From positions 14,190,124-14,254,123 of the forward strand of contig CM119265.1 of assembly GCA_051294375.1 (NCBI GenBank): a DNA stretch of 64,000 bases, in the 5' to 3' direction. The notes beneath the pieces are model-generated. The model had not been told where the DNA came from and did no database searches. It was given only the letters and a program-made list of their open reading frames with translations. This DNA is from Paraspadella gotoi. Lineage: Eukaryota; Animalia; Chaetognatha. The position numbers and the translations under genes were made by a program. Positions 486-64,000 of this stretch are shown piece after piece (the first letter of the stretch is position 1; every line of letters begins with the position of its first letter).

Positions 486-3400
486 CTACTGCACCGGCGA
501 GTCGACGTCCGCAATCCCCGATTTCTCGCAAAAGATTCTCATGTCGTGGATTTCATCCCAATCCGACCACCACATGGAACCCTCCCCCCAGTCTTTGTCA
601 AGCTGGTGGGGATCCCCGGCGGAGAGATCCAGCATTGGAATGATGGCCTGGTGATGGTCATCGTCGCCTCTACCCAAGGCGGCCTGTGCCTTTTCAAGGT
701 TAGACGTCTTGGCCACGATTGTTTTACCGTTCTTCCCTTCTTTCACTGCGCAAAACCAGGATTCAAGATCTAGAAAAAAAAGAAGCCTTTTTTTTTTTAA
801 TGATTCAAGATTTCAAGATTCAACTTCAGTCGAACGTTTGAACTAATTTTTTTTTTTTCTGATAAGTAAACAGAGCAAACAAATAATTGCGGGAACTAGT
901 TATGATGTTTTTAATTGTGTCGGGGCGCAACCCAGGACCATTCTTGTTTTCATACTATATTCTTTTGCGATACAATTAATGGTTAATTTTAATATTCAAC
1001 CCCTTATCCAAATACAGGGCTCTAGGGCTGCACTCCCAGAAGGCCGGCAAAAAATGCTCAAAATTTTTTTTTAGAAAGTTCGTTTTTTCGTTAGGATATT
1101 GCATTGATGTCTTAATCTTATAAAAACATTTTTAAATCAATATTAATAAATTTCAGTTTATAAGTGGTCTTGATTTTTTTTAAATTGAAAATATATTTTA
1201 GTTTATAATAGTGGTCATGAGTTTTATAAAATTGGAAAAAAAATTGGACCCGTTCCATTGCTGCCGAGCTTACCTAGCGCCTTATCCACAATGTTACTGT
1301 AAATCTATATTATAATTGATGAGCAACATATTTTATTACGCTTGACCGCGAACAAAAAATATATACACTTTTACCAGTTCAATCAAAGACCTGGCCCTAT
1401 AACCTCACCTGGCATGCCCGAGTCTTCACAAGCACGCCTCATTTCTCTAATATGATCCCAATCTTTCCACCATATAGAGCCTTCTTCCCAGTCTCTGTCA
1501 AGCACATGGGGATCTCCAGAAAAATTATCCAGCATTGGAATGACGGACTGGGGGTTACTATCGGCGCCATGTGACAAGGCGGCCTGTGCCTTCTCAACGA
1601 TCGATGTCTTTGCCGTGATTATCATAGCTTCTCCGCGTTGGATCACCGAGCAAAACCAGTAATGAGGCTCTGAAAAGTTGTTAGGAAATAATTTATTGCA
1701 TCTGACCAACTTACCAGTTTGCTGTAAAATGCTCAAAATCTTTACATCATAAAATCATTGGCTTTAAACGTATATGCAGTTTACATAATTTACATAGATA
1801 CTGAATCAATCAAAGAACTTGCTTGCTTGTCTCACCCGGTGTGCCAGATTTTTCACAGACTTTTCTCATCTTGCAGATGTGATTCCAATCCCACCACCAC
1901 ATATTACCCTCCCCCCAGTCCTTGACGAGCTGGTGGGGATCCCCGGCAATTCCATCTATCATTGGAATTATGGCCTGGGGATGTTCTCTGTCGCCTTTCG
2001 ACAAGACGGATTGTGCTTTCTCAAGTTTTAAAGTCTTTGCTACAATGTTCAAAGTGTTGTTCCTATCTTCCACAGAGCAAAACCATGCTGTCGGCTCTAA
2101 AAAGTAGAAAAGGATAGATATTGATAGAGAAGGATAGATATAAGTATGGCCGAGAATTCAATTTGTGTAATTGCGTGACATATTTCCTTATTGCAAACGA
2201 TGCAGCGACTAACATAATTCCAGTCCCGGACATATCACCTGGCATGCCCGACTCTTCACAGGCGGTTCTCATCTTGGGGTTCTGCAGCCACTCTTTCCAC
2301 TTAAAGGAACCGTCGCTCGAATTTGCCACATCGTGCGGGTCCATGGCGTGATTATCGAGCATCGGAATGATGGCTTTGGTTAGCTGGGGGCCCACTATTG
2401 TAAAGGCGGATTCCGCCTTCTTGAGGTCAAAGGTTTTTATGGCAATATCCATTTTATCTCCGCTGTCGACCACGGAACAATACCAGCCCTTGGATTCTGA
2501 TATTCGGGAAGGGTTGAGAGAGGTGAGCGGCAAAAAAAAAAACAAAAAAAAAAACGCGGCAAGTTTAAAGACGTGACCATTTCCGACCTGGCATTCCCGC
2601 ATCTTCGCATTTCGATTTCATCTCATAAATGTGGAACCAATCTCTCCACCAATTTCGGCCCAAATTATCCTTAAGAGAGTGAGGATCTCCGGCGAAATTA
2701 TCGATCATTGGGATAATGGCTTGAGGATGGTATTCGGATCCGCGAAGCAATGATTTTTGAGCCATCTCGAGATCGTAGGTCTTCAAAACCACACCCTTCT
2801 CCTCCGTTAGGACGCAGTACCAGTGGACCGAGTCTAACCCAAAAGTATAAGCGAAAACCAAATGAAGATTGTAAAAAATTAATAATAACAATAATAATAA
2901 TAATAAGAAGAAGAAGAAGAAGAAAAAGAAGAATAAGAACAAGAAGAAGAACAAGAAGAATAACAAGAAGAAGAAGTAAATCAATCTTATATTCAAAACG
3001 AAGTTCGTTATTTTACTCGGATATCCCGAGTCCCGGCAATCTTTCTTCATTTCTTCGATCGCCATACGACAGACATCCCCACGATACAATGGTTCTCCGG
3101 CAAAGTCATCCATCATCGGAATGATGGCGTTTTTTGTCGAATGTCGCCGCGAGAGCGTCTGCTGGACTTTTTCGAGATCATAGGACTTGATTAAAATTCC
3201 GTCCTTCTCATCGGCCGCGCAGTACCACTTTTTGGGACCTGACAGGGTTCAGTGTTTTTTCTCTAAATCTCAATAAGAAAAAAAAAACTACCCAGTTAGT
3301 ATTGGCTCACCCGGTATTGCTGTATTTTCGCATTCCGCTCTGAGTTCGTTCAGCTGTGGCCAATTATTCAACCACATGGATCCATTTTTCCATTTCTGAG

Positions 3401-4996
3401 GAAGCGTGGTCGGATCTCCGGCCACGTTGCCCGACATCGGGATGATCGCTTGAGGAATGATTTCCTTTCCGCGAATCAGAGAATTTTGAGCCTCACGAAG
3501 ATGGGTTGTCTTCAAACGAATTCCTTTGTCTTTCCTAACGACGCAGTACCACTTTTGAGGTCTTTTAAGGTCTAAAAGAAGATTTTTGTTTTTTAATCGG
3601 ATCTGCTTTCAGCAAATCCCGACTCTATAATTCACTTTGTCGGTCCGTCGGTCCGCCCCCTCAATCTTGTCGGGCATTCACTTATATCATGTCAGAACAT
3701 CGAATTATGATAAATTATGCAGAAAAAACGATGTCCGTCCGACCGTCTGTCTGTCCGTCCGTCCCACCTTAGCAAAAAACATTAATTACTCGTGATTGGA
3801 TGGATGGATTGGAATAAAATTTCGTGTGTGGGTAGGGAAGTGTGTGATTGAGCTGGATATGAAGTTTCAATGGAATCGTCCGAGTGGAAATGAGTTTAAA
3901 TGGAAAAAACAAAAAAATATATTTTACTATTTGAACACCAATTACTCACGAGTGGATGGGGCGATTGACTTGAAATTTTGTATTTGGGTAGAAATGTGTG
4001 TTATTAAAGTGGAAATCAAGTTTTGATGGAATCGTTTGAGTGGAAATGAGTTTAAATGGAAAAAACAAAGAACCCGTTTCACTAATTGATTATGCTTCTT
4101 TTTCTTTTTATTTTCAATGTAAATGCAAGATGTATTAATAAATCAAATAATTAATCAGTTAATTAATCAATTAGTCAATTAATTAATCAATAATTAATTA
4201 ATCAGTTAATTAATCAATCAAAACAAACATTTTGGATCAAATTAATTATTTAATTGCATAATTAATTAAATAATTAACTTGAATAAATTAATTATTAATT
4301 AATTAAATAATTAATTAACTTGAATTAAATATTAATTATTTAATTAATTAATAAATTATAAATAATAAATAAATAAATAATTAATAAATAATAAATTAGT
4401 GGGCAGATCCGACATTGTTTGCTCAAACGTGTTTAATTTACAACTTTTTTTCCCCCTTTTTTCCCCCCGAATGTTAAGAAAATTGAGGAAGAGCGCGCGT
4501 TCACCTTGATCCTTGCAATTCGTTCCCTGGCAATCGTCATCGTCATCTGAATCGCTTTCTTCGACAGGCGGTCTTTGAGGAATTATCATTTCATTTTCTT
4601 CGCAGTCCGTGTCGTAGTAAAGCCGAATGTTTCTTTCAGAAAATAAACGTCAGAAGAGTCGAACACTACCGATTTCTTTGCTCGATTTATTCGCAAGCAG
4701 CGAACTTACCTCATCAACGCGAACCGATTCCCCTCCGTGTCCGGTGCGGCATCGTCAACGACCAACAGAAGGCAGTTCCACTCTCCGTTAATGGGTTGAG
4801 TAAACCTGACCTGACGGACGTCGTAGCCCGAAGCGAAGGAAGCTGTGGAGAGAGAATTTGAATTGGATTGTATTAAGGAAACGGGCTTTGGGCTACGTTG
4901 TGCCCCTCAAAGCTACATCAATTTACAAAATGATATTTAAGGATATAAACGAAAATCGGGTAGAGTTTTTATCCTAAACATGTTTCATGAAATCTT

Positions 4997-5049
<53 letters not shown>

Positions 5050-7296
5050 AAATAACCGCCGCCGTCTTGATAGAAGAGAGAATACAGCTCACCGGCAGCG
5101 TCGTCTCCTTCCTTCAATTCGTAAACGAGATTGTCGAAATAGTTGTATTTTAGCTGTTCATGAGAATAATCTTCATGGAAAAACCTTCGGCTCTCAACGC
5201 AGTCCGAATCTGTCCAAGAAAAAGTATAAAACTGATTAGAAACGGACAGTTTTTAGAGTATTTTCTTTAATAAAATAATATTCATAAAATTACCGTGACT
5301 GACGTATAATCGCATCTTCGTAGGTTGATAGTAACTCACATCCAAATGTCCGTCGTATATATCGACCGGGTATCTGAGTAAAAAAACTCGTTTTTATCTC
5401 GCGTGGTTATATCGATTCATCCAACTTTGCCAACCGATAATATTTTTCTTCCGCGAACCGAAAGATCCCTCGACCGAACCAGAGAATATTCACGTGACTT
5501 CGGCTCTTCCTTGCTCATATCTGAATTTACCAGTCACCAACTTCTTCTTACCGGCTTTGCCAGCTCATTCCCAGAATGGCCTTTCTCTTTCTCCGCGTTC
5601 CCAGATGCATCATAACGCCCGTTCTTCCCGGCCTCGGTTGACCGTCGGATGAAAAAGGCTCTACGAATAGAGAATAGTGAATCGGGACTCTAACAAACAC
5701 CCTCTCTGGATAAAGAGCCTCTCACGGCCTCACTTGAAAACCAATAGCAATGATCGCAGGTCGCGTTCCACGCCACGAATTCTGCCTTTTCGACATCATT
5801 ATAAAATTCGCCCTGAAATTCCAAATTGCATTGCATGGCTTTAAAAACGTGGTCCATCGGACCCTGGTCAACTTGTAGTCGGGCAATGCCTAGGTTCACC
5901 CCGCCAATAAGCATGACTCTTTCAGTTGTGACCAGGTGGCTCATTGAGTAAAGCCATCAGCTCATGACCACTAGGTGCGGGAAGAGTGAGGATGGCCGTA
6001 AGCCGCCTTGGGGGCGTGGCAAACCCTCAAGCCTGGTTCCAAGCCCAGGAACCGTTCCATGTCTGCTAGAGGAGGTTATAGAAATTACGGATAGTCATCT
6101 TCTGCCCACTTAGCGCCTTATCCACAAACTTTCCGCGTCTCACCTCTTCTTCCGTGAGAGCCAAGGATCCCCAATTGGGGACATCGATCCGTTCGCCTTT
6201 GGCGCCGCTGATGGTGAAGGCATGGAATGCGTCCACTTCACTAATTGTCAAAATACCTTAGGAAACATAAAAAACTTTTAAAAAGTGGCGTATCGCTGTG
6301 GGTGGGGAGTAAAGCGTAGCAAAAATATTAAAATCAAGTATAATCAAAATTCGAATAATAGATCATGAACATTTTTAAATAAAAAATATTATTTTTTGGG
6401 GGGTCAATTTTCGCATTAGCCAAAAATTATACAATATACATAGTACTCACTATAGAAAATGTCAAAATTTTAAAATGGTTTTTCCTTATTTTTAAAAGCA
6501 GATTCGAATTGATAAAAGGAAATATTGTGGACGAACATATCAAACACGCAACCTCGGTCGAACCACTTGACCTTAACAACCTGACCCCGCTCGGTTCCCC
6601 CAGTTTATACGTGGTCAAATCGTTGACCTTTGTAAATACCATTGTAATAGACTTAGCATCTGAGCATTTTGATTGTTATTGTTTATAATCTTGTTGAAGA
6701 ATAAATCATTCTTGATCTGAAACTTGTGTCGTCCATAATATAACTCTTTTTAAAAAAAAATTTCTGTAAGTGGGTCAAAATCCTTAAAAACTGTTATAAT
6801 TAACCTACAATTAAATTTTAATATAAAAATATAGTTTTTTTAATTTTTAGATAACTTAATGAAATAATTTTTGATTAAGACTTATACTTTCTTATATAGG
6901 AACTCGAATCTGTTTTCAAAACTTAAAAAAAAACTATTTTAAAAATTTGATATTTTTTATAGCCATTATAGACATTTTTTATGTATAAATATGGGCTAAT
7001 GCGAAAATTAAGAAATTCTTTAGTACAAGACTGTTCATGATCAACTATTCGAATTTTGATCTGCAACTTCCACTAGGCCTTAGTGGGGAGCCCTGCTAAC
7101 GATAGTTTCTTCTCCCACATAATCACATTGTTAACATAATTTATTTATTGCTATCATTTGGACGAAATTCACTTTGAGTGCTTTCACTGTTGATCGTTTC
7201 CCCGTGCATCCCATCGTGACGGAAACCAACGATATCGCAACATCCCGCCAGATTCACCAAAAACGTTGCTTGACAGATCAACCAGAGAACTTTCAT
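486..7296 (-). CDS. Uncharacterised secreted protein (~823 aa) with seven tandem exon-encoded Trp/Cys repeats
   Basis: 13 phase-compatible GT-AG exons: 7173-7296, 6144-6240, 5294-5373, 5093-5209, 4710-4842, 4505-4632, 3311-3571, 3017-3238, 2588-2833, 2239-2496, 1836-2096, 1409-1669, 486-769 (2472 nt, open to stop). Starts MKVLWLICQATFLVNLAGCC (signal peptide-like), has RKKR across exon 2/3, an acidic linker, then 7 repeats W[YF]C..KT..L..AQ..L..G...PQAIIPM....AGDP...W..G..WW..W....MR..CE.SG.PG. Confidence 0.85.
3605..4075 (+). mobile_element. Non-autonomous Helentron-associated (HINE/DINE-1-like) element in an intron
   Basis: GTCY microsatellite tracts (gtcggtccgtcggtccg; gtctgtctgtccgtccgtcc), the motif attgacttgaaattttg, and a ~155-bp internal tandem duplication (about 3783-3935 and 3940-4070). 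Confidence 0.5.
5877..6089 (-). repeat. Dispersed GC-rich repeat, copy 1 (inverted relative to 31480-31731)
   Basis: The reverse complement aligns along its length with 31480-31731, e.g. tcctgggcttggaaccaggcttgagggtttgcc, tagtggtcatgagctgatggctttactcaa, ggcggggtgaacctaggc. Confidence 0.9.
6343..7060. mobile_element. MITE-like element with imperfect terminal inverted repeats
   Basis: atcaaaattcgaataatagatcatgaac pairs with gttcatgatcaactattcgaattttgat; an inner pair ttttcgcattagcc / ggctaatgcgaaaa lies at about 6407 and 6994. Confidence 0.6.
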
Positions 7297-7582
7297 GATT
7301 ACCCTCCAAAAAATTACAAAAAAAACAAAAAAAAAACCAGAAATTAGTAGAAGCGAAATCCTTGGCCCCGATTTACGGCTGTTTGTTTCAGAGCGATCGC
7401 GTTTTCTCGGTATTTGTGGAACTATGGATATTTAACTATGGATTTAACTATGGATATTTATATTGGATAATACTGTTAATAAATTACATTCAGCTTTTTC
7501 TAATTACTCTCCGTTTTTTTTTATTTACACTTTGTTTTGTTAGTATAGTATCACTTTTCCCCTACGTTTTCCGCTCTTTGGT

Positions 7583-13461: not shown

Positions 13462-13959
13462 ATGTGTTACGTCATCGTAACCTGTCGATCCCTTCTGTGG
13501 ATGCTGCTGACGATCTCGGCGGCGCTGGCCATGATTTCCGCGGTGATAACGCCCAAGTGGCTCATCGGTGAGTGATGTGAGCCCGTTTTGGCAAAACGGG
13601 CGAGTTTATTTGTCTCGGTTTAGGTCTGGTCGTAACTCATAAGAGCCTAGAAAGGACGTAAATGACGCCGTAAATATCTTTGAGAGATACGTATCTGATC
13701 GGCGAACGGATGACGCACGGTAGACGCTCACTTTCCGTTCAAATCGATGAGTTGGTAGACGTAGTATGAAATTTTGCGAGTTGCTTTGCTTCCGCTCATA
13801 CATACATGTACATTGTACAATACATACACACATCACTCTCATGCATGTTCTCTCTTCCATAATCTCTCCCCATTTCTTTCCCAATATTCTCTTCATTTTA
13901 TTTCCTGCTTCGTAAAATGCCTTCCTCTCTCCCTCCTCACTTTTTCTCACTTCCCCTGA

Positions 13960-14027
<68 letters not shown>

Positions 14028-14949
14028 GAAGCGTTATATCTAACAAAAACGTTTGTAAGCTTTTACTTGACCACAGCGCGTCCAACTCCTACCTCCCTTT
14101 ATCTCCCTCAGGCTATCCGCGTTCCAACTTCCGCACGCCCGTCAACCCGAGCTCGGTTCGCCCTCAATTCGAGAAGGAGATCCTCGACTCGATCGCCGGC
14201 TCCTCCGAACTCGCGCTTTCGCTCGTTTCCACCGACGATAGCCAGGGGCGAGGCGAGGCACGAGACTCCTACCGCCCCACCCTCGGCCTCTACAACCGCT
14301 GCACCGTGATCCACCACGCCGACTTCCGCGGCGTGTCTTCGCAGCGTCTCCGCGAACACTGCGCCCCTTTCGTCGACTCCTTCGACATGCCCGACCGCGT
14401 GTTCCCGGACTTTTGGAAGGCGGCCATCGTCTTCTTGGGCTTGGGCCTGACTCTGCTCTCGGTGACAGTTCTTTCTAGCTTATTGGGGTGTTGCTGCAGG
14501 AGCATCTGCAAGAAGAGCATATTCACGGTGTCGGGGTTGGTGCAAGCCATCGCAGGTCGGAGGAAGTAAAAAAGTTTTATAATGCCTGGTATCTTTTTTA
14601 ATAAAACTTTATTTTATTTCTCAGGCCTGTTTTTCATTTTCGGACTCGTCATGTTCCCCGCTGGTTGGGGAAACGAGAAGGTTAGGGATTACTGCGGCCA
14701 AAACGCTGCGCCATTTGTCTTGGATCAGTGCGATCTGGGTAAGTTTTTTCAACCATTGACGAATCTCCAATGGCGCTTTAAACCGGAACCGATCCCTGTT
14801 TTCAAGGTTGGGCCTTTTACGCCGCCATGGGCTCCACGTTTCTGGTTTTCGTTTGTTCGATCCTCTCCGTTCAAGCAGAGATTTCGACCTCTAGCGACGA
14901 TGTGCAGGATGAAATTCTCAAGGGGAAGACGCTCATTTGTTTGCCATAA
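13462..14949 (+). CDS. LHFPL2: LHFPL tetraspan family member, LHFPL2-like
   Basis: Exons 13462-13567, 14112-14555, 14625-14738, about 14807-14949. N-terminus [16 protein letters not shown]...KWLIG, motifs [52 protein letters not shown] and C-terminus [25 protein letters not shown] match the LHFPL2 subfamily as I recall it. Confidence 0.93.
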
Positions 14950-15728: not shown

Positions 15729-38599
<22,871 letters not shown>

Positions 38600-40090: not shown

Positions 40091-43000
40091 ATGGAAGTGA
40101 CCCACAATGAAGGAAAGGAGGAGGCTTCCAAGGAGGCGAGTGACTCCGAAGACGAGAGCGAAATCCTGGAGGAGAGTCCCTGCGGTCGATGGCAAAAGAG
40201 GAGAGAAGAGGTAAGGAATGTGGTGAGGTGGGGGAGATGGCAGAAGATGAGAGAAGAGGTAAGTAATGTGGAGAATTGGGGGAGGTGGCAAAAGAGGAGA
40301 GAAGAGATAAGGGATGTGGTGGGATAGGGGGAAATGGCAAAAGAGGAGAGAAGTAGGGAGAGATGGCAAAAGAGGAGAGAAGAGTCAAGGTGGTTGGGTA
40401 GATAGCAAAGGAGTGATGAAGGCGAGGTGGTGAGGTGTAGGAGATGGCAAAAGAAAGGATAAGTGGTAAGACAGGTGGTATTCCGAAAACCAAAATGTCA
40501 GACGCTTGAAGTTGAAGATAAGTTTTATTCATGTCATCACTTCATTCAAAGCATCATTTTACTATATCTGTTAGGTTTTCCTACTAAACCTAGGTGCGGG
40601 CTATTCTTTTTGTATGACTTTAAGCATTATAGACGTTTAGCATCATATATAGTTGTAATATAAACGTAACATAACGAAGTATAAACGTTCAAAATAAGCA
40701 AATATCCCATTCTTTAGAACCATAATGAATTCGCGTAATAAAACCGTAAGGACAGCCGTAAAGCATCAGAAAAAGCGACCGAAAAGGGATCCGAGAAAGC
40801 AGCCGCTGGACTGTGAAACAGATTATATAACGATTTAATATAAAATGTTCGAATTATAAACGCAATAAAAACTTATTAAAAACGAATTAAGAACCATATA
40901 AACGGACCTAGTATACACGTCGAACTTTATAAAAATTTGGCGATTACATAAGCATAAAAATATACATTTTAACTTTAGAAATAAACGGCGTTGCATAAGC
41001 AGAGAATTTGGCATTAAATTCGAAGCAGCAATAAACGGTAACGTGCAGTGAAATCGTCTGTGAACCGAATTTAAAAAAATAGGACGAGAGAGAAAAAACT
41101 GGTCTCTCGCGAAAGCGGGGCAAACAAAAGATCAGAACGAAGTGACACTAGTCAATGACTAGTATGACTAGTAGTCACACTACGTTTACGTTGAATACTA
41201 TGAATAGGTTATTCTGTCTTTTGTCAAGTGTTTGTACAAATACAATGAACACTGAACACACTTTACCTAATTAATTAATTAATTAATTAATTAATTACGG
41301 AATTAAAATTTGCCATTTTTTCTTCTTTCAAACTTGTTGGCAAACGTAACACTTTCCATCACGCACGAAGTAGAAATCGAAGGTTCGGCGACATCCTTCG
41401 CAAAGAGAGACTTTCCAACCGGTCGTTCCCGCCAAACCGAACTCGATAAACAAATCGATCTTTAGCGGCAAATATTGATTCTGTTCGAACTTGTTGAAGG
41501 TTCTCGACGGGAGATCCCGGTAGTAGGCGGCGTAGATCGAGGAGACTTCGCGAGCTTTTTCCAAAAGAGCCGCGAAATCTGGGTTTTTCTTGAAAATTCT
41601 GTAGAGTTGGAAGAGACCCATGGTGTCGGACCGGCAATACTTGATCATCTCTTCGGTGATGGGGCGACTCGACCAGTATTCGCGCGAACCGATCATTTTT
41701 CCTTCCCCAATTTTCTTCTGCTTCGCAAGAGAAGAATCAACTGAGTAGTTTGCGAAGCATTTGCTCAAACCCCATAAATGGTCCACTTTTCCTCTACTAG
41801 TTGTGTCGCGCTCCTGAATTAAGGGGTGAACTTAGGTAATATTTTGCCTGATTAACTGAGCAAAGTGTTACTGAAATTGCCTAGGTAAAAAAATGATTTT
41901 TTTTTAATTAATATAGGCAATTTCTGAATCAAAATATTTTGCTTATATTTATTTTTAAAGATAAATAAAACAATATATTTTCTTTTATTGTTTTAATTTC
42001 GTTATCAACTATATTTTCAATTTGTTATTACTATATTTTAAGCCTAAAAATACTTTTCCCAGATGGCATGAAATATGAGCATCAGCATTAAGTATGTAAA
42101 CTACTTGGCTACTACCAGACCCAGAACCAATAAAATTATTAAAGAAGATTAATTCATTGATAAATAAAAAAATAACAGATAATAAAGAAATTAGTAATAA
42201 CAATAAGGATGCATACATTTAAAGAGATTTGCAATGCAATGTATCCTGATAAGATAAGATTAAAACCTTGATCAAAGATGATGTAAAAATGTACACAAGA
42301 CTCAAGACGCCCAAAAATGTTTTGTATCTTATTTAGAATGTTAAAGCTCATTAGAATTCTTTGCAGAATATGATATGGATTACTCAATACCTCCCTAGCT
42401 GATAATATTAAAAAATTCGAGCTCGATATGGAAAGTAAATATCCTATGGATATGATTTTGAAATAAAAAAATCTAAAAAAATTCTTCTATTTTTTCATCA
42501 TTAACAAAGATTTTAACTCAAAGTAATAAATGACATTCTTGAACATACTGAAAAATGTTTATCTTATTTAAAAACAACTATATAATAGACTCCAACCCCT
42601 GTCTCCAAACACCAAATACCAAACACCAAACATATTTTAGCTATTAATTTTTTTTATAAAATTATTTTATCTTTCATTAAAAACATTTGGGCTAAAACTA
42701 ATTGAATTTAAATGTTGAGCAAATTAAAGTTTTATATTTGATAAAGATTTTGTTTAGAAATTAATACAGAAAATATCCTATTTTGTTATTTTTTTAATTT
42801 TATATAAAAATTTGTGTTTTTTCCTTTCTGTTTCGTTGTGATTTGATTTAGAACAAAGTTTTGAAGAGAGATTTAACAACGATTTTTATTTCATAGTGAA
42901 ACGGACATGTTTCGACTCACATACGAGTCTTCTTTGCAAAATTACTTGTTTCACTATCTTATATTTTTATATTTTATGAATGTTTTACTATTTAAACTTT

Positions 43001-46000
43001 GTGTGTAACTCTCTCTCTCTCTCTTTCTCTCCCTCTTCTTCTTTTGTAGAAAAATTTTTGAGCATTTCACAAAAACTTTGACGCTGATGAAGGCTCAAAT
43101 TGTGAGCCGAAACATGTTTGTCTACCAATAAAAATTGTTGTTGCAATTAAATAATTCGTCTCCTTAATTTATTTAATTTATATTATTTTATTATATATAT
43201 ATTACTTTTTAAAAATATTATTTGCTTATTATATCTAATAACTCATTTTGGGAGGGGGAGGTCAGTGTTGTCTTCTGGAAATAGAAGGAGCATCTATACA
43301 ACACAAGGTTAGACTACAATAAAATACAATTAGACTACAATATTTAATTAAATATCATTTGGCTTCAAATTTTTAAAGATAACCTTTCCTTTTGAAATCT
43401 TAGCAAATTAGATCATAAGTTTATCAGTTATATCTTAGTTTTAAAGATCCTTTCCTCAATTAAAAATTGCCTACTTTTATTCAGTTAACTACTAAGTAAA
43501 CCAAAAAATTGTCTATTACCTATTAAAGAAAAAATCTTTGCCTAAGTTCACCCCTTATCCTGAATACAAATAATAAGTTCAATATTCACAACTGTCAGGC
43601 ATAAAATAGAAGCGTCGTTAAAAATAAAGAAATAAATAAAACCACCGGTCCACCAGCAGTCAATACGAAAAAGACTCAATTCCAATCTCACAAACCTTGT
43701 TTGGGTTAATTTAATAATTAAATCATAAATTTTTATTAATTTTTAATAATTTAATCATTAAATCTTAGGAATTGTTTATTGTTTGCCAATACAACGATTT
43801 TTATTAAATAAAAATCGTTGTATTGGCAAACAATAAACAATTCCTAATATTCACTTAGCAACGAAAAGAGATTTTTTATTAATTTTTTATTTTTATTTTT
43901 TATTTTTAATTTTTTATTAATTTTTANNNNNNNNNNCAGTCAATACGAAAAAAAGACTCACTTCCAATCTCACAAACCTTGTTTGGGTTAATTTAATAAT
44001 TAAATCATAAATTTTTATTAATTTTTAATAATTTAATCATTAAATCATAAATTTTTATTAATTTTTAATATTTTAATCATTAAATCATAAATTTTTATTA
44101 ATTTTTAATAATTTAATCATGAAATCATAAATTTTTCGACGGAACATGCCGGTGTAATATTTTAAATCTTTTACAAAACACTTACGTTCAAATGTTTGGT
44201 CCGATTTCTAATCGGAACCAAAGAAGTTAACCCTCTCCTCAACAAGATGTGAATAAGTTGAAGATCCAACACTCCCCGCAGCGTCACTCCCCACTGGTGA
44301 TACATCGCGTCCGAGTCGTTGCGGCAGTCGAACATCAGCTTAACAACAGCTTCGTCTTCGAGGATTCGCTTCAGCCTTTCGTCCAAAGAATCAGTCTTCA
44401 GCTCGAGCGTGTCAAAGAGATAAAGCTTCTCCGTCGTAGCGATTGACAGAATGGTGACTTTTCCTTCGCGACTGAGTTTGACCCCTTCGCAGTCGACGGC
44501 GATAAGGCGAGGCTTCTCCGGCGACATTTTCAACACTTTCTCTTGTCGCTTTTCATCGTCGTCGTCGTCGTCGTCGTCTTCGCGTTTTCGTTTGGAAAAG
44601 CTTTTATCCGGAGATTCGGCTTCGGCTGCGGTTGACGGAACCGATTCTGCCACGGTTCCTTCGACCGACGAATCCGACGGTCTGGATTCTGTCGTAGGCT
44701 GCGGCGATGAGGGAGTTTTGCTGGAGTCGCCCGATCGTGGTTCAGAAGATAATACGGTCGTCCAAAAGCTTTCTTGCGAAGGATCTTTTTCCGCTGGAGA
44801 ATTTCGTCCGATATACGCCTCCAACTCCTTGATGGCGAGATCGAGTTCCGAGGGAGACGACACCACCGCGACGTCGGAAGCGGACATTTTTCTTAATTAG
44901 TTTAGCGATTCTGGATCTTAATTTCCTTTAAAAGAAAAATATAATATCTCCGGTCCGAAGTCCGGAAGAAGTAAATAGTAGAAATCAATGGGAATAGTAT
45001 CGAGAGACATGGAATGACCGTCTGTGATTGGTCGGAATGGAATCTTCTTCAACGAATCATCATCCCTAGAAACGGCATAAAACAAGTCTTCGGGCGTCTT
45101 CCCTTACAACCGATATTTTATTTTTACTAGTTTAAAGTAAATAATTGTTCATCTATTAACCTCTTAAAACTTAGATCAACGAAGGAAACCGAGAAAAATA
45201 AAATAATGACGAGACATTTTAAAGATTTTTAGTCCCAAAAATCTTATGACAATCGACAAATAGTAAGCAGACCAAAACCTGATTTGAGGAATGTCGATAT
45301 CTTGTCTTTCTATCTCTTTTTTACTTTTCTTCTTCTTTATACGTAATATGTGCAATATGTGTAATATGTATTGTGTAGTGTTTACTTATATATTTTTGTA
45401 GTAAAAAAGTATTATTGTGATTTAGATAAAGATAAAGAGTTAAGAACAAAATATAAATCACTTTGATTGAAAAAATTATGTCTTCAGCTTCTAAAATAAT
45501 AGTTTTTATTTTAGAAGATTTTTTGTAAAATGTAATGAAAAGTGTTAATTGTAAGTAAAGTATAATTTTCCATCGTGTTTATTATCATGCGTCCACTAAA
45601 AGAGGGAGCAATAAAGTATTGTTAGATCAATAAGCTTTTATCACTCCATTCTACTGTGTACGTATATAAAGGTTAATATAAATTAAACAAGAACCAGTCT
45701 CCGACTGAACTCTAGTCATGCCTCTAGTTAATTACTATTAAAATAAATAATGTAATATTCTATGTAGATTTTGGTTGTAAAATAATGAAAAGTATCATGA
45801 CTAATTGTCTATGAGCAGTTCATTACAATTTTTCGTTTCTGATGAGATTACAAACGAGGCACATTCCTCGTCGTTCGAAGAAAAAATCATACTCTCGCCG
45901 ACAGCCATCGCATTCAAAGACACTCTCGGTCCAAGGCCCCGTCGACCCGAACTCTATGAACAAATCCAACTTGAGTGGCAGAAATCCGTTCTCTTCGAAG

Positions 46001-49000
46001 ACGTCGTTGGTTCGATTCGGGAGATCGCGGAAGAATTCCGCGTAAATACGGGACGCTTGGAAAGCGGATTCGAAGCGTGTCGTAAAGCGGGGATTCTTTT
46101 CAAAGACGTCGAAGAGATGAAAAAGACCGACCGTATTTGCATGGCAATATTGCATCATTTCGTAGGTGACGGGGCGACGATGCCAAAAATCCTTCTGGCT
46201 CTGAACTTCGTTTTCTCCCTTCTGCCTCTGAATCATGAAGGAATAGTCGACGCTATACATTCTGAAGCATTTGCTCAATCCCATCAAGTTGTCGACTAAG
46301 GAGCGAGTCGTTGATCTACGTTCCTGAAAAAAAATTTTTTTACTTCGACTACATTTATAATTTTATAACAAATGCTACAATTAAAGACTTTCCTTCATAT
46401 ATCCAATTATATTTCTCAGCGGAACAAAATCAACTAATGTTCTTCGCAAAATAATTTCCAAGAGCTCCAGATCCAGAACGCCATCTAAAAGAACATTGTG
46501 TTGACGGAACAAGGCGTTGGAGTCTAAGCGACAGTCGAACATTAACTTGACAAGGGTTTTATCTTTTATCCTTCTCAGCCTGTCGTCCATAGAACGAGTA
46601 CCCAATTGAATCAAATCGAAAATGAAGACTTTGTCCGGAATTGCGATGGAGAGGAGCGTCACTTCCCATCTACGATGACGTCGGACTCCTTGACAGGCAA
46701 CGGCGAGGACCGGGGATTCCACGGGCGCTGCTTTAGCCTTTTTACGAGGTAGTTGAGACGAGGACGCTTTTGATTCCGCATTGTCTTCCTCCTCTCGTTT
46801 CCTTTTGGTCGTCGTCGATTTCAAGAGGAATTGCGACGAAGTTGGGTCGCTCTTTGTCGTGGCCGCTCTTGAAGATTGAGATTCTTCGATAATCTTTGGT
46901 GGCGATTTCGACGCTCTCCTCAAGATCGCTTCTAACGTTTGGACGGCCCGTTCGAATTTTGATGAGGAAGAAACCACTTCCATGGCGGATGTGGACATCT
47001 TCGCGGATGAATCCACGTTGATATCATCGTATCATTTGAATCCCGAAAAATCCGAAAAACATTTTGTTGTCGTCGATGCCGATTGTCGATTTCTCAGAAT
47101 TGCGAACACAAATTTCCCAGAATTCACAGACATTACAGAATTTCTCGGAAATAGCACGTTTTAATTATTTTGTTTTTCACCTTATTAGTATCACTCCAGT
47201 ACGAACAAAGGAACATTTTTCGGGAATAAGCAAGGCCAAGGGAATATAATTTTTGTAAACCCTCCAAAAAGTATTCACAATGATTTTACATTTAATTAAT
47301 TAATATGAAACAATGAGAAAGATAAGTTTTATTCCCTTTTCGAGTTATACCGTAATACCGTAGTGCTCTGTTACCAGGTGAAGCAGCGGGATGTACCCGG
47401 CATCGATGTGGCCTACCTCGCCATGGACACCGAAGAGGGCGTCGAGGTTGTTTGGAACGAGACCCAGTTCTCCGACAGGCGGAGGAACTTCAAGGAGCAA
47501 GAGAAGAAGATCCGGAAGATCTTCGACAACCTCATCCGACTCGAGCATCCCAACATCGTCAAGTTCCACAAATACTGGACAGACACAGAATCAGAGGAGA
47601 AGCCAAGAGTGGTGAGAAAAATTTTTTTTATTGAATATATATATATATATATATATTTACTTTCGCCGACTGGGTTTGGGAGGGGTAAGGGTTAACAATG
47701 ATTTAAGGGTGGTTACCACTGGTTCGGGCCAGGGTTAGGGTAATTGGGTAATATTTTTAAATAATTTTTTAAAAGCCGCCATAACCGCGGTCGGCGAAAG
47801 TAAAATTTAGCCATATATTGTATATATTAATTTTTTAAGATTAAGCGATTGATTGATCGACCAGTGAATTTAACCTCACATTCCACACTGTTTTATCCAG
47901 GTGTTCATAACCGAGTACATGTCGTCAGGTTCGCTGCGATCGTTCTTGAGGAAAACCAAAATGAACAACAAAAGTCTCTCGGAAAAAACGTGGAAACTAT
48001 GGTGCACTCAGATTTTGTCAGCGTTGAGGTAATCAGAGGATTTTTTTTAAAAAATACTGTAATAAAGCTTATTTTTATTTCGAGATAACCTGCAATTATG
48101 TACCTAATTTAAAAAGTAATCAGTATAATCCTTACATTGTGTTTTTAGTCTTTCTTTTTCGTTGCGTTAGAATATTTAGTGAAAAGTTTAAATTGGATTT
48201 CACAACGATTTTATTTGTATTAATGAACAGGCATGTTTACGAGTCTTCATCAGCGTTAACGTAAATCTCAGAGTCGAAACATGTCCGTTCATTAATACAA
48301 ATAAAATCGTTGTGAAATCCAATTTAAACTTTTCACTAAAATCCTTACATTATAAAATTGTAATTTTTACAGCTATCTCCACGCTTGCGATCCGCCAATC
48401 ATCCACGGCAATCTCGCCTGCGACACGATCTTCATCCAACACAATGGACTGGTTAAGATCGGCAGCGTCGCTCCCGAGGCGATCCACCACCACGTCAAAA
48501 CTTGCAGAGAGGAAAAAAAGAACATGCATTACATCGCCCCGGAGTACGCAGGTTGAAAAATCTTCGTAGGCATCCTCGTCTACTTTTTAGATGTAATTTT
48601 TCCAGATGTTCTGAACTCATAAATTTATGAACTTTTCACGAAGAATAAATTTGTTGCCCGAGCACCTCTTAAAATCTGTTTGCCGGCAGGTATGGAGGAG
48701 CCTTCCCCCGCGGCTGACATCTACTCCTTCGGCGTCTGTGCCCTCGTTATGGCAGCGTTGGAGTTGAGCGAATGCAACTTCGTCGCCGACGACGTCCTCG
48801 ACGCCGCCGTCGACAAGATCGACAACCCGTTGCAGAGAGACTTTATCAAGTGAGAAAGACAACGTTCGAATGAGATGGTGGGAAGGGAAGGTCTAATCAC
48901 GGTTTACAATCCTTAAATGCTATAATTTCACTATTTCATTTTGGATCGAATTGTTACGCTTTCCCTTCGTAGGCGCTGCCTCTCCCAGGATCCGCGATCG

Positions 49001-51064: not shown

Positions 51065-64000
<12,936 letters not shown>

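Follow-up and report, generated by a model that had tools for sequence, protein, structure and literature searches.

An apparently undescribed mobile extracellular module, encoded by seven exons of a probably secreted chaetognath protein, and its possible role in multivalent glycan binding

Class 1-1 modules such as EGF, FN2, PAN, TSP1 and sushi are small and encoded by one exon each, with phase 1 introns on both flanks; according to Patthy's review (PMC8001218), most of them are extracellular and mainly beta. Two other kinds of domain contain a GDPH tetrapeptide which undergoes autocleavage, both in VWD domains, where Asp and His are each required (PMC10880436), and in the bacterial MIIA domain (PMC6506597). 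Here we describe a gene on the minus strand of a stretch of 64,000 nucleotides from the chaetognath Paraspadella gotoi (NCBI GenBank assembly GCA_051294375.1, contig CM119265.1, positions 14,190,124 to 14,254,123; hereafter the window, in whose numbering all coordinates are given), in which seven exons each encode one copy (R1 to R7) of a module of about 80 residues. We read its product as a likely secreted, multivalent glycan binder composed of seven exon-encoded, likely disulfide-closed modules, a reading to which we assign a probability of roughly 45%; that the module is a mobile extracellular one is the part of it that we hold to be very probable.

The module resembles the class 1-1 modules in its size, its single exon and its phase 1 flanks, and also in being likely closed by cysteines and in occurring, alone or as tandem copies, in many architectures of secreted proteins beside EGF, FN2, PAN and TSP1. 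It differs from them in its alpha+beta model, as against their mainly beta folds, and in having a member in a rhizarian protist, and neither Pfam nor the fold searches gave a sequence or structure match to these named modules. With VWD (FCGBP, MUC2, RGM) and MIIA/NopE it shares the conserved GDPH tetrapeptide, and VWD is moreover extracellular and disulfide-tethered, as the module, judged by its sequence, probably is as well. However, VWD is a beta-sandwich, whereas the module is modelled as an alpha+beta domain of ~80 amino acids (aa) with the motif in a mid-domain loop; the Pfam VWD profile matched none of the seven window copies at E<=1 and none of 77 members at E<=0.1, and the fold searches, run with an R5 model that is alpha+beta with three long strands, listed no VWD chain. 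GYF (PF02213) and DUF6316 (PF19837) show a weak local likeness, over 11-27 residues, to the strand-GP[FY]-helix part of one subgroup, but the module has in addition a Cys pair, a long Trp loop and a C-terminal helix, and GYF scored at best 16.5 bits, in 2 of 14 proteins, against a cut-off of 25.7, with no G-Y-F signature in the alignments. The best structural neighbours of the R5 model have the C-terminal alpha+beta arrangement of RNase PH and the exosome, which, unlike the module, is part of a large intracellular enzyme, and their Z is within the range of common arrangements. By profile the module is neither a VWD nor a GYF member, and it appears to behave as a class 1-1 mobile extracellular module.

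Structure and transcript support of the gene

The gene was derived from transcript contigs of two runs, X1 and X2, belonging to two studies; their RNA status is presumed by the search program, and their contigs do skip GT-AG introns. Fourteen introns, all GT-AG, are skipped and every one of the 14 joints is present in contigs of both runs, which gives at least 15 exons instead of the 13 modelled in the first-pass annotation. The joined exons form a single open frame of 891 aa from an ATG at 7296, in which a hydrophobic N-terminus and a region of ~270 aa precede the module part, the last two-thirds of the protein.

The module exons, all on the minus strand, are those of R1 (3311-3571, 261 nt), R2 (3017-3238, 222 nt, with the Trp loop deleted), R3 (2588-2833, 246 nt), R4 (2239-2496, 258 nt, diverged), R5 (1836-2096, 261 nt, the copy used for the structure model) and R6 (1409-1669, 261 nt), followed by a terminal exon (196-769) with R7, the stop codon TAG at 488-486 and a GA-rich 3' untranslated region (UTR). 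Splice sites and contigs agree with the exon sizes originally proposed for this block (486-3571), and the spliced frame bears out the proposed phases, with phase 1-1 in all six internal module exons and entry in phase 1 into the terminal one. The exons are also spliced together as had been suggested, all six inter-module joints being found in contigs of X1 and X2; at two of these joints the shorter flank in X1 is just 28 and 30 letters long, where X2 has 57 and 220. The inter-module splices listed are consecutive joins only, and skipping of a module exon was not seen in these contigs, in which rare forms are dropped. Runs X3 and X4 gave short or low-complexity matches only, with no piece on any module exon. 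The stop codon was confirmed, with 0 other letters among the covering contigs of both runs, and a hidden-Markov search of all six frames found no eighth copy in the window. An X1 contig covers the 3' UTR to 196, and an AATAAA lies at about 150.

Beyond the TAG the frame remains open for 38 further, mostly Glu codons (485-360, minus strand), which may be a lost acidic tail or mere GA-rich UTR. On the opposite, plus strand a Pro/Ser/Leu-rich ATG open reading frame (ORF) of 138 aa (227-643) overlaps the terminal exon and its 3' UTR, probably a by-product of the GA-rich UTR. Intronic stretches at 3600-4400 and 5900-6100 show a very high X1 contig depth with many variants and are likely interspersed repeats.

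Upstream of the modules lie eight further exons on the same strand. The first coding exon (7173-7296) encodes the signal-peptide-like N-terminus and ends in phase 1; it is followed by exon 2 (6144-6256, phase 1-0), which belongs to the N-terminal region, exon 3 (5734-5812, phase 0-1), exon 4 (5552-5660, phase 1-2), which holds a basic R-x-K-R stretch, a possible convertase site, exon 5 (5294-5373, phase 2-1), exon 6 (5093-5209, phase 1-1), exon 7 (4710-4842, phase 1-2) and exon 8 (4505-4632, phase 2-1), whose last part encodes an acidic linker with Cys that leads up to the modules. The ~270-aa region (4505-6256) contains, besides these basic and acidic stretches, seven cysteines. Scanned exon by exon, none of the eight N-terminal exons had a Pfam match, a homolog search with exon 7 found none, and no stored protein matched the region, which may be a second unnamed domain.

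At the 5' end, an X2 contig extends to 7307 and carries 33 letters beyond the genomic match; as it ends next to a polypyrimidine tract and an AG (7305-7304), a further upstream exon is suggested, with a splice near 7303. An X1 contig ceases to match the genome at 7284, and the first 20 of its unmatched letters are absent from the window; from record lengths and bin depth it would be the long contig, with ~770 unplaced letters. The 20 letters place an in-frame ATG immediately before codon 5, so that the start is hydrophobic in both 5' versions. No second strongly hydrophobic segment is among the top hydropathy windows of the 891-aa protein. That the protein is secreted is made likely by this hydropathy, by its 26 cysteines and by the phase 1 intron that follows the first coding exon.

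Conservation, predicted fold and relatives of the module

The seven copies are 32-60% identical in pairs. Synonymous divergence (dS) is saturated in 10 of the 21 pairs, and nonsynonymous divergence (dN) is below dS in all 11 computable ones, in line with the purifying selection proposed earlier. A profile built without the window copies scores each of the seven at 43.9-112.7 bits, compared to at most 9.2 for shuffles (191-200 scored per copy). The motifs put forward in the first-pass annotation held to differing extents: W[YF]C is present in all seven copies and C-x2-[STA][GA]-x-P in six (R7 has no P), while the central IIPM-x4-AG[DE]P is exact in four, with MDP in R4 and VIPM plus SGDP in R6, the latter within the Ala/Ser alternative already allowed for. 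The full W-x2-G-x2-WW-x2-W cluster is restricted to three copies (R5-R7); R1, R3 and R4 keep part of it, and R2, from which it has been deleted, is nonetheless a clear member (probability 98%). GDPH occurs in four of the seven.

Across 155 copies the conserved positions include Trp4 (91%), Cys6 (99%), Gln28 (75%), Gln40 (82%), Asp52 (83%), Pro53 (92%), His54 (66%), Lys58 (68%), Trp60 (83%), Trp67 (95%), Trp70 (65%) and Cys80 (95%). Most of the conserved residues that are not of a core type are held by the loop that leads from strand 3 to the last helix (Asp52, Pro53, His54, Lys58, Trp60, Gly63, Ser64, Trp66, Trp67, Trp70 and Asp72), which is preceded by the conserved Gln28 and Gln40. Of 123 copies with complete ends, 115 have both end cysteines (a further 32, being incomplete, were dropped); seven lack Cys80 at its column, several of them in apparent read-through ORFs, and the single copy without either is in a fusion protein of Bigelowiella natans (P0130). 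This conservation suggests that a Cys6-Cys80 disulfide likely closes the module.

An AlphaFold2 model of R5, based on 77 sequences, is confident (mean pLDDT 97.5, pTM 0.88) and has the topology beta-beta-alpha-beta-loop-alpha, with strands at 3-11, 14-21 and 40-46, helices at 24-29 and 70-82 and an ordered long loop; Cys6 lies in the first strand and Cys80 in the last helix. For a four-copy relative (P0002) a single-sequence model was uninformative (pLDDT 37.5). On the basis of the R5 model and of the single-copy sequences, many of them fragments, the module is predicted to fold on its own.

The view that the module belongs to no recognised family is supported by searches of Pfam, NCBIfam and the PDB. 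In Pfam none of the seven window copies had a family match (best E 0.17) and no family fell on the module in the 77 aligned members; NCBIfam gave none for R5 and R7. Searching the Protein Data Bank (PDB) by sequence returned PP2A HEAT and LRP6 only, at E>=0.054, a further search 0 matches at E<=1, and the GP[FY] subgroup nothing relevant. The ESM Atlas yielded no usable match, an outcome that speaks neither for absence nor for novelty. Foldseek, which had been recommended together with AlphaFold for one repeat, gave 0 matches at E<=0.001 in the PDB or in BFVD, and VIA-align found none of 48,161 chains at Z>=5, the best being an exosome RNase PH chain (Z 4.7, root-mean-square deviation (rmsd) 2.9, 65 residues aligned, 5% identity), while the typical best Z is 7-8 for models without a clear match. 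A further fold search likewise gave no clear match. The absence of a match in these fold searches, of which Foldseek covered the PDB and BFVD, is no proof of a new fold. A description of the module was not found in the part of the literature that was searched.

These weak neighbours bear on the possibility that the fold is not new and that the module belongs, as a distant relative with an enlarged loop, to a known family of small beta-beta-alpha-beta domains, with GYF, DUF6316/DUF7336, the RNase H1 N-terminal-like domain and the C-terminal arrangement of RNase PH as candidates. Local Pfam matches on the module (DUF6316 at E 2.9e-5 in P0124, GYF at E ~0.01), small phage proteins that align over ~50 residues (rmsd 2.4-2.9, E 0.4-1.5) and the RNase PH-type chains would fit such an origin. 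However, the DUF6316 and GYF matches are partial and under their cut-offs, and with neither fold search reaching its threshold we consider a known family quite unlikely. The module is likely undescribed and possibly has a new fold.

Several labels on the module or its carriers were set aside. DAPG_hydrolase and DUF6316 matches in longer relatives are below cut-off, Rhabdo_glycop_FD in P0091 reaches 24.2 bits against a cut-off of 22 over half of its profile, and as each of the three occurs at E<=0.001 in 1 of 62 proteins only, they were treated as chance. The JGI label 'phosphopantetheinyl transferase' on P0002 has no such Pfam match behind it, the protein consisting of module copies. P0018 (586 aa) starts like a signal peptide and carries the module towards its C-terminus; a seeming likeness of its helical N-terminal part to cnidarian pore-forming toxins found no confirmation in Pfam, NCBIfam or the PDB and was not used.

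In a collection of 1.84 billion representatives the seven-copy profile matches 136 clusters (50% identity), 91 of them at E<=1e-10, and an iterated search gave 168 domains in 143 sequences (the 136 matches plus the seven window copies). One copy is present in 124 of these sequences and two to four in 19, never more than four, from which it follows that the module can stand alone; many of the relatives are fragments. Pfam scanning of the 62 longer matches yielded 18 with a match, 15 of them outside the module, and in 13 of these 15 the partner is of an extracellular or luminal type: VWA, EGF, FN2 with PAN, F5/8C (three proteins), TSP1 with PAN, Ly6, ADAM, pentraxin/LamG, PA14, PRKCSH-like and PLA2G12. 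The remaining two are C2 and ubiquitin-like. These partnerships agree with the earlier proposal of a mobile extracellular module.

The one organism named among 30 clusters looked up is the rhizarian Bigelowiella natans, so the module is not confined to animals; the other matches would be animal, to judge from their partner domains and a read-through signature. The latter consists of G[KEMN] directly after the last Cys, found in 25 of 56 short gene-caller ORFs, against 4 of 40 among long proteins (Fisher p=2.6e-4) and 3 of 36 further downstream. Rows of insufficient length, 20 among 76 short and 7 among 47 long ones, were left out of the count; the pattern was picked post hoc, and the rows are related and not independent. 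Read as the in-frame translation of a phase 1 donor, the signature indirectly suggests that other genomes, too, end the module at such a donor. In one relative whose locus was fetched, the ORF is continuous and has no introns. Prokaryote genomes and viral contigs gave no relative, by one or two exact peptide patterns only, and word-indexed homolog searches, a method insensitive here, gave 1 and 0 matches though longer relatives exist.

Exon shuffling, which had been invoked for the array as a whole, is evident in the architectures of these other proteins; the array itself is most simply explained by tandem exon duplication. In a rapidly built tree (123 copies, 94 columns), in which most forks are open, six of the seven window copies group together (SH-aLRT 83, unstarred). 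Both runs also contain a second, diverged transcript piece like R7 (671-763) with different flanks, which in X2 differs at 13 of 93 letters, and a paralogous module-bearing gene is therefore likely to exist elsewhere in the genome.

Glycan binding and its alternatives

Tryptophan next to Gln, Asp or His is typical of sugar-binding sites, and F5/8C, PA14, PRKCSH-like and pentraxin are sugar-binding families. Multivalent glycan binding was chosen because the module combines such a Trp-polar loop with sugar-binding partner families and with the avidity expected of a tandem array. The protein would be exported through its hydrophobic N-terminus, a Cys6-Cys80 bond would tie the two ends of each module, and a phase 1-1 exon would have been amplified by tandem duplication. 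The conserved Trp of the loop, with polar Gln, Asp, His, Lys and Ser, would form the binding face; five or six intact copies on short linkers would provide avidity, R2 remaining as a spacer after loss of its loop, and the protein would serve to bind sugars multivalently at a cell or body surface. The module probably binds some ligand; that this ligand is specifically a glycan is more tentative, at somewhat under even odds.

A number of observations weigh against this interpretation. The conserved Trp could be core residues, and the partners include non-lectin domains too, while 47 of the 62 longer relatives have no partner domain. No function is known for any of the relatives, and none of the 30 clusters looked up was informatively named. 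A crude signal-peptide screen was passed by 9 of 33 Met-starting relatives of at least 200 aa, many of which are fragments, and P0130, which joins a ubiquitin-like domain to two modules missing one or both end cysteines and has no hydrophobic N-terminus, is likely a cytosolic use of the module. In the gene itself, the putative signal peptide is indicated by hydropathy only and the 5' end differs between X1 and X2; R1 falls outside the group formed by the other six copies, within an enclosing group whose branching the tree does not settle.

The same partners can be read otherwise. VWA, EGF, TSP1, ADAM, FN2 and Ly6 are protein-interaction domains, and a 17-copy subgroup with a G-P-[FY] motif (SH-aLRT 99) gives weak matches (E 0.007-0.011) to GYF, a domain that binds proline-rich peptides. 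The module might then be a mobile extracellular protein- or peptide-binding or spacer domain and no lectin, in which seven copies cross-link matrix or surface proteins and the Trp/Met cluster mostly packs the long loop. We regard this as rather unlikely, as many conserved polar residues adjoin the loop Trp and the GYF matches span 11-14 residues at 15.8-16.5 bits, well under the cut-off of 25.7.

The GDPH motif, flanked by the two conserved cysteines, occurs in exact form in 79 of 153 copies, with xDPH in 97 and xDP in 121 of them. Self-cleavage at its Asp-Pro bond would leave two halves held by Cys6-Cys80, and FCGBP fragments reportedly remain disulfide-linked; the cut would stabilise the protein or make a reactive cross-linking site, and could coexist with binding. 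In the R5 model, however, Asp52-Pro53 stands just before a short helix (53-55), an ordinary helix N-cap position, and such a role would explain the Asp-Pro conservation without cleavage. His is furthermore absent from about a third of the copies, and cleavage in VWD depends on surrounding residues (PMC10880436). The 50 structural matches listed include no VWD chain. We consider self-cleavage of the module quite unlikely. That all of these properties meet in a new small fold, common to animals and marine protists, disulfide-tied, self-cleaving at GDPH and acting as a multivalent lectin, is more doubtful still.

Genomic surroundings and significance

Elsewhere in the window, an uninterrupted frame of 4,323 codons (15729-28700, minus strand) encodes many FN3, two LamG, laminin-EGF and galaxin-like Cys repeats, which we take to be most of an usherin-like gene in one exon of ~13 kb; upstream of this exon (about 28760-37400) the gene is made up of small exons. 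At 41328-47031 (minus strand) lie two related genes in tandem, both 3'-5' exonuclease-like, with a Pfam DNA_pol_A_exo1 match for 44174-44896 and none for 46384-47031. Further genes encode an LHFPL-type membrane protein (13916-14566, plus strand), an M14 carboxypeptidase (54374-54775, plus strand), a lytic polysaccharide monooxygenase-like protein (58009-58398, plus strand) and a Rab-GAP TBC protein (61614-61931, minus strand).

New promiscuous extracellular modules are rarely found now. The present one joins VWA, EGF, PAN, FN2, F5/8C, TSP1, ADAM and PA14, and no Pfam family, solved relative or named member was found for it, apparently because its carriers are mostly in unannotated metagenomic and transcriptomic collections, as seen in the 30 clusters looked up. 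Being small and confidently modelled, it can be produced, solved and screened directly. If the proposed functions are true, a compact new lectin fold or a self-cleaving tag of 80 residues would be useful as a reagent, and the combined reading would add the module, with a minimal 80 residues, to VWD and MIIA as a third independent fold that cleaves itself at GDPH. Since it is present in a rhizarian protist and, apparently exon-bounded, in animals, the module can serve to test how a domain that already existed turns into one of class 1-1.

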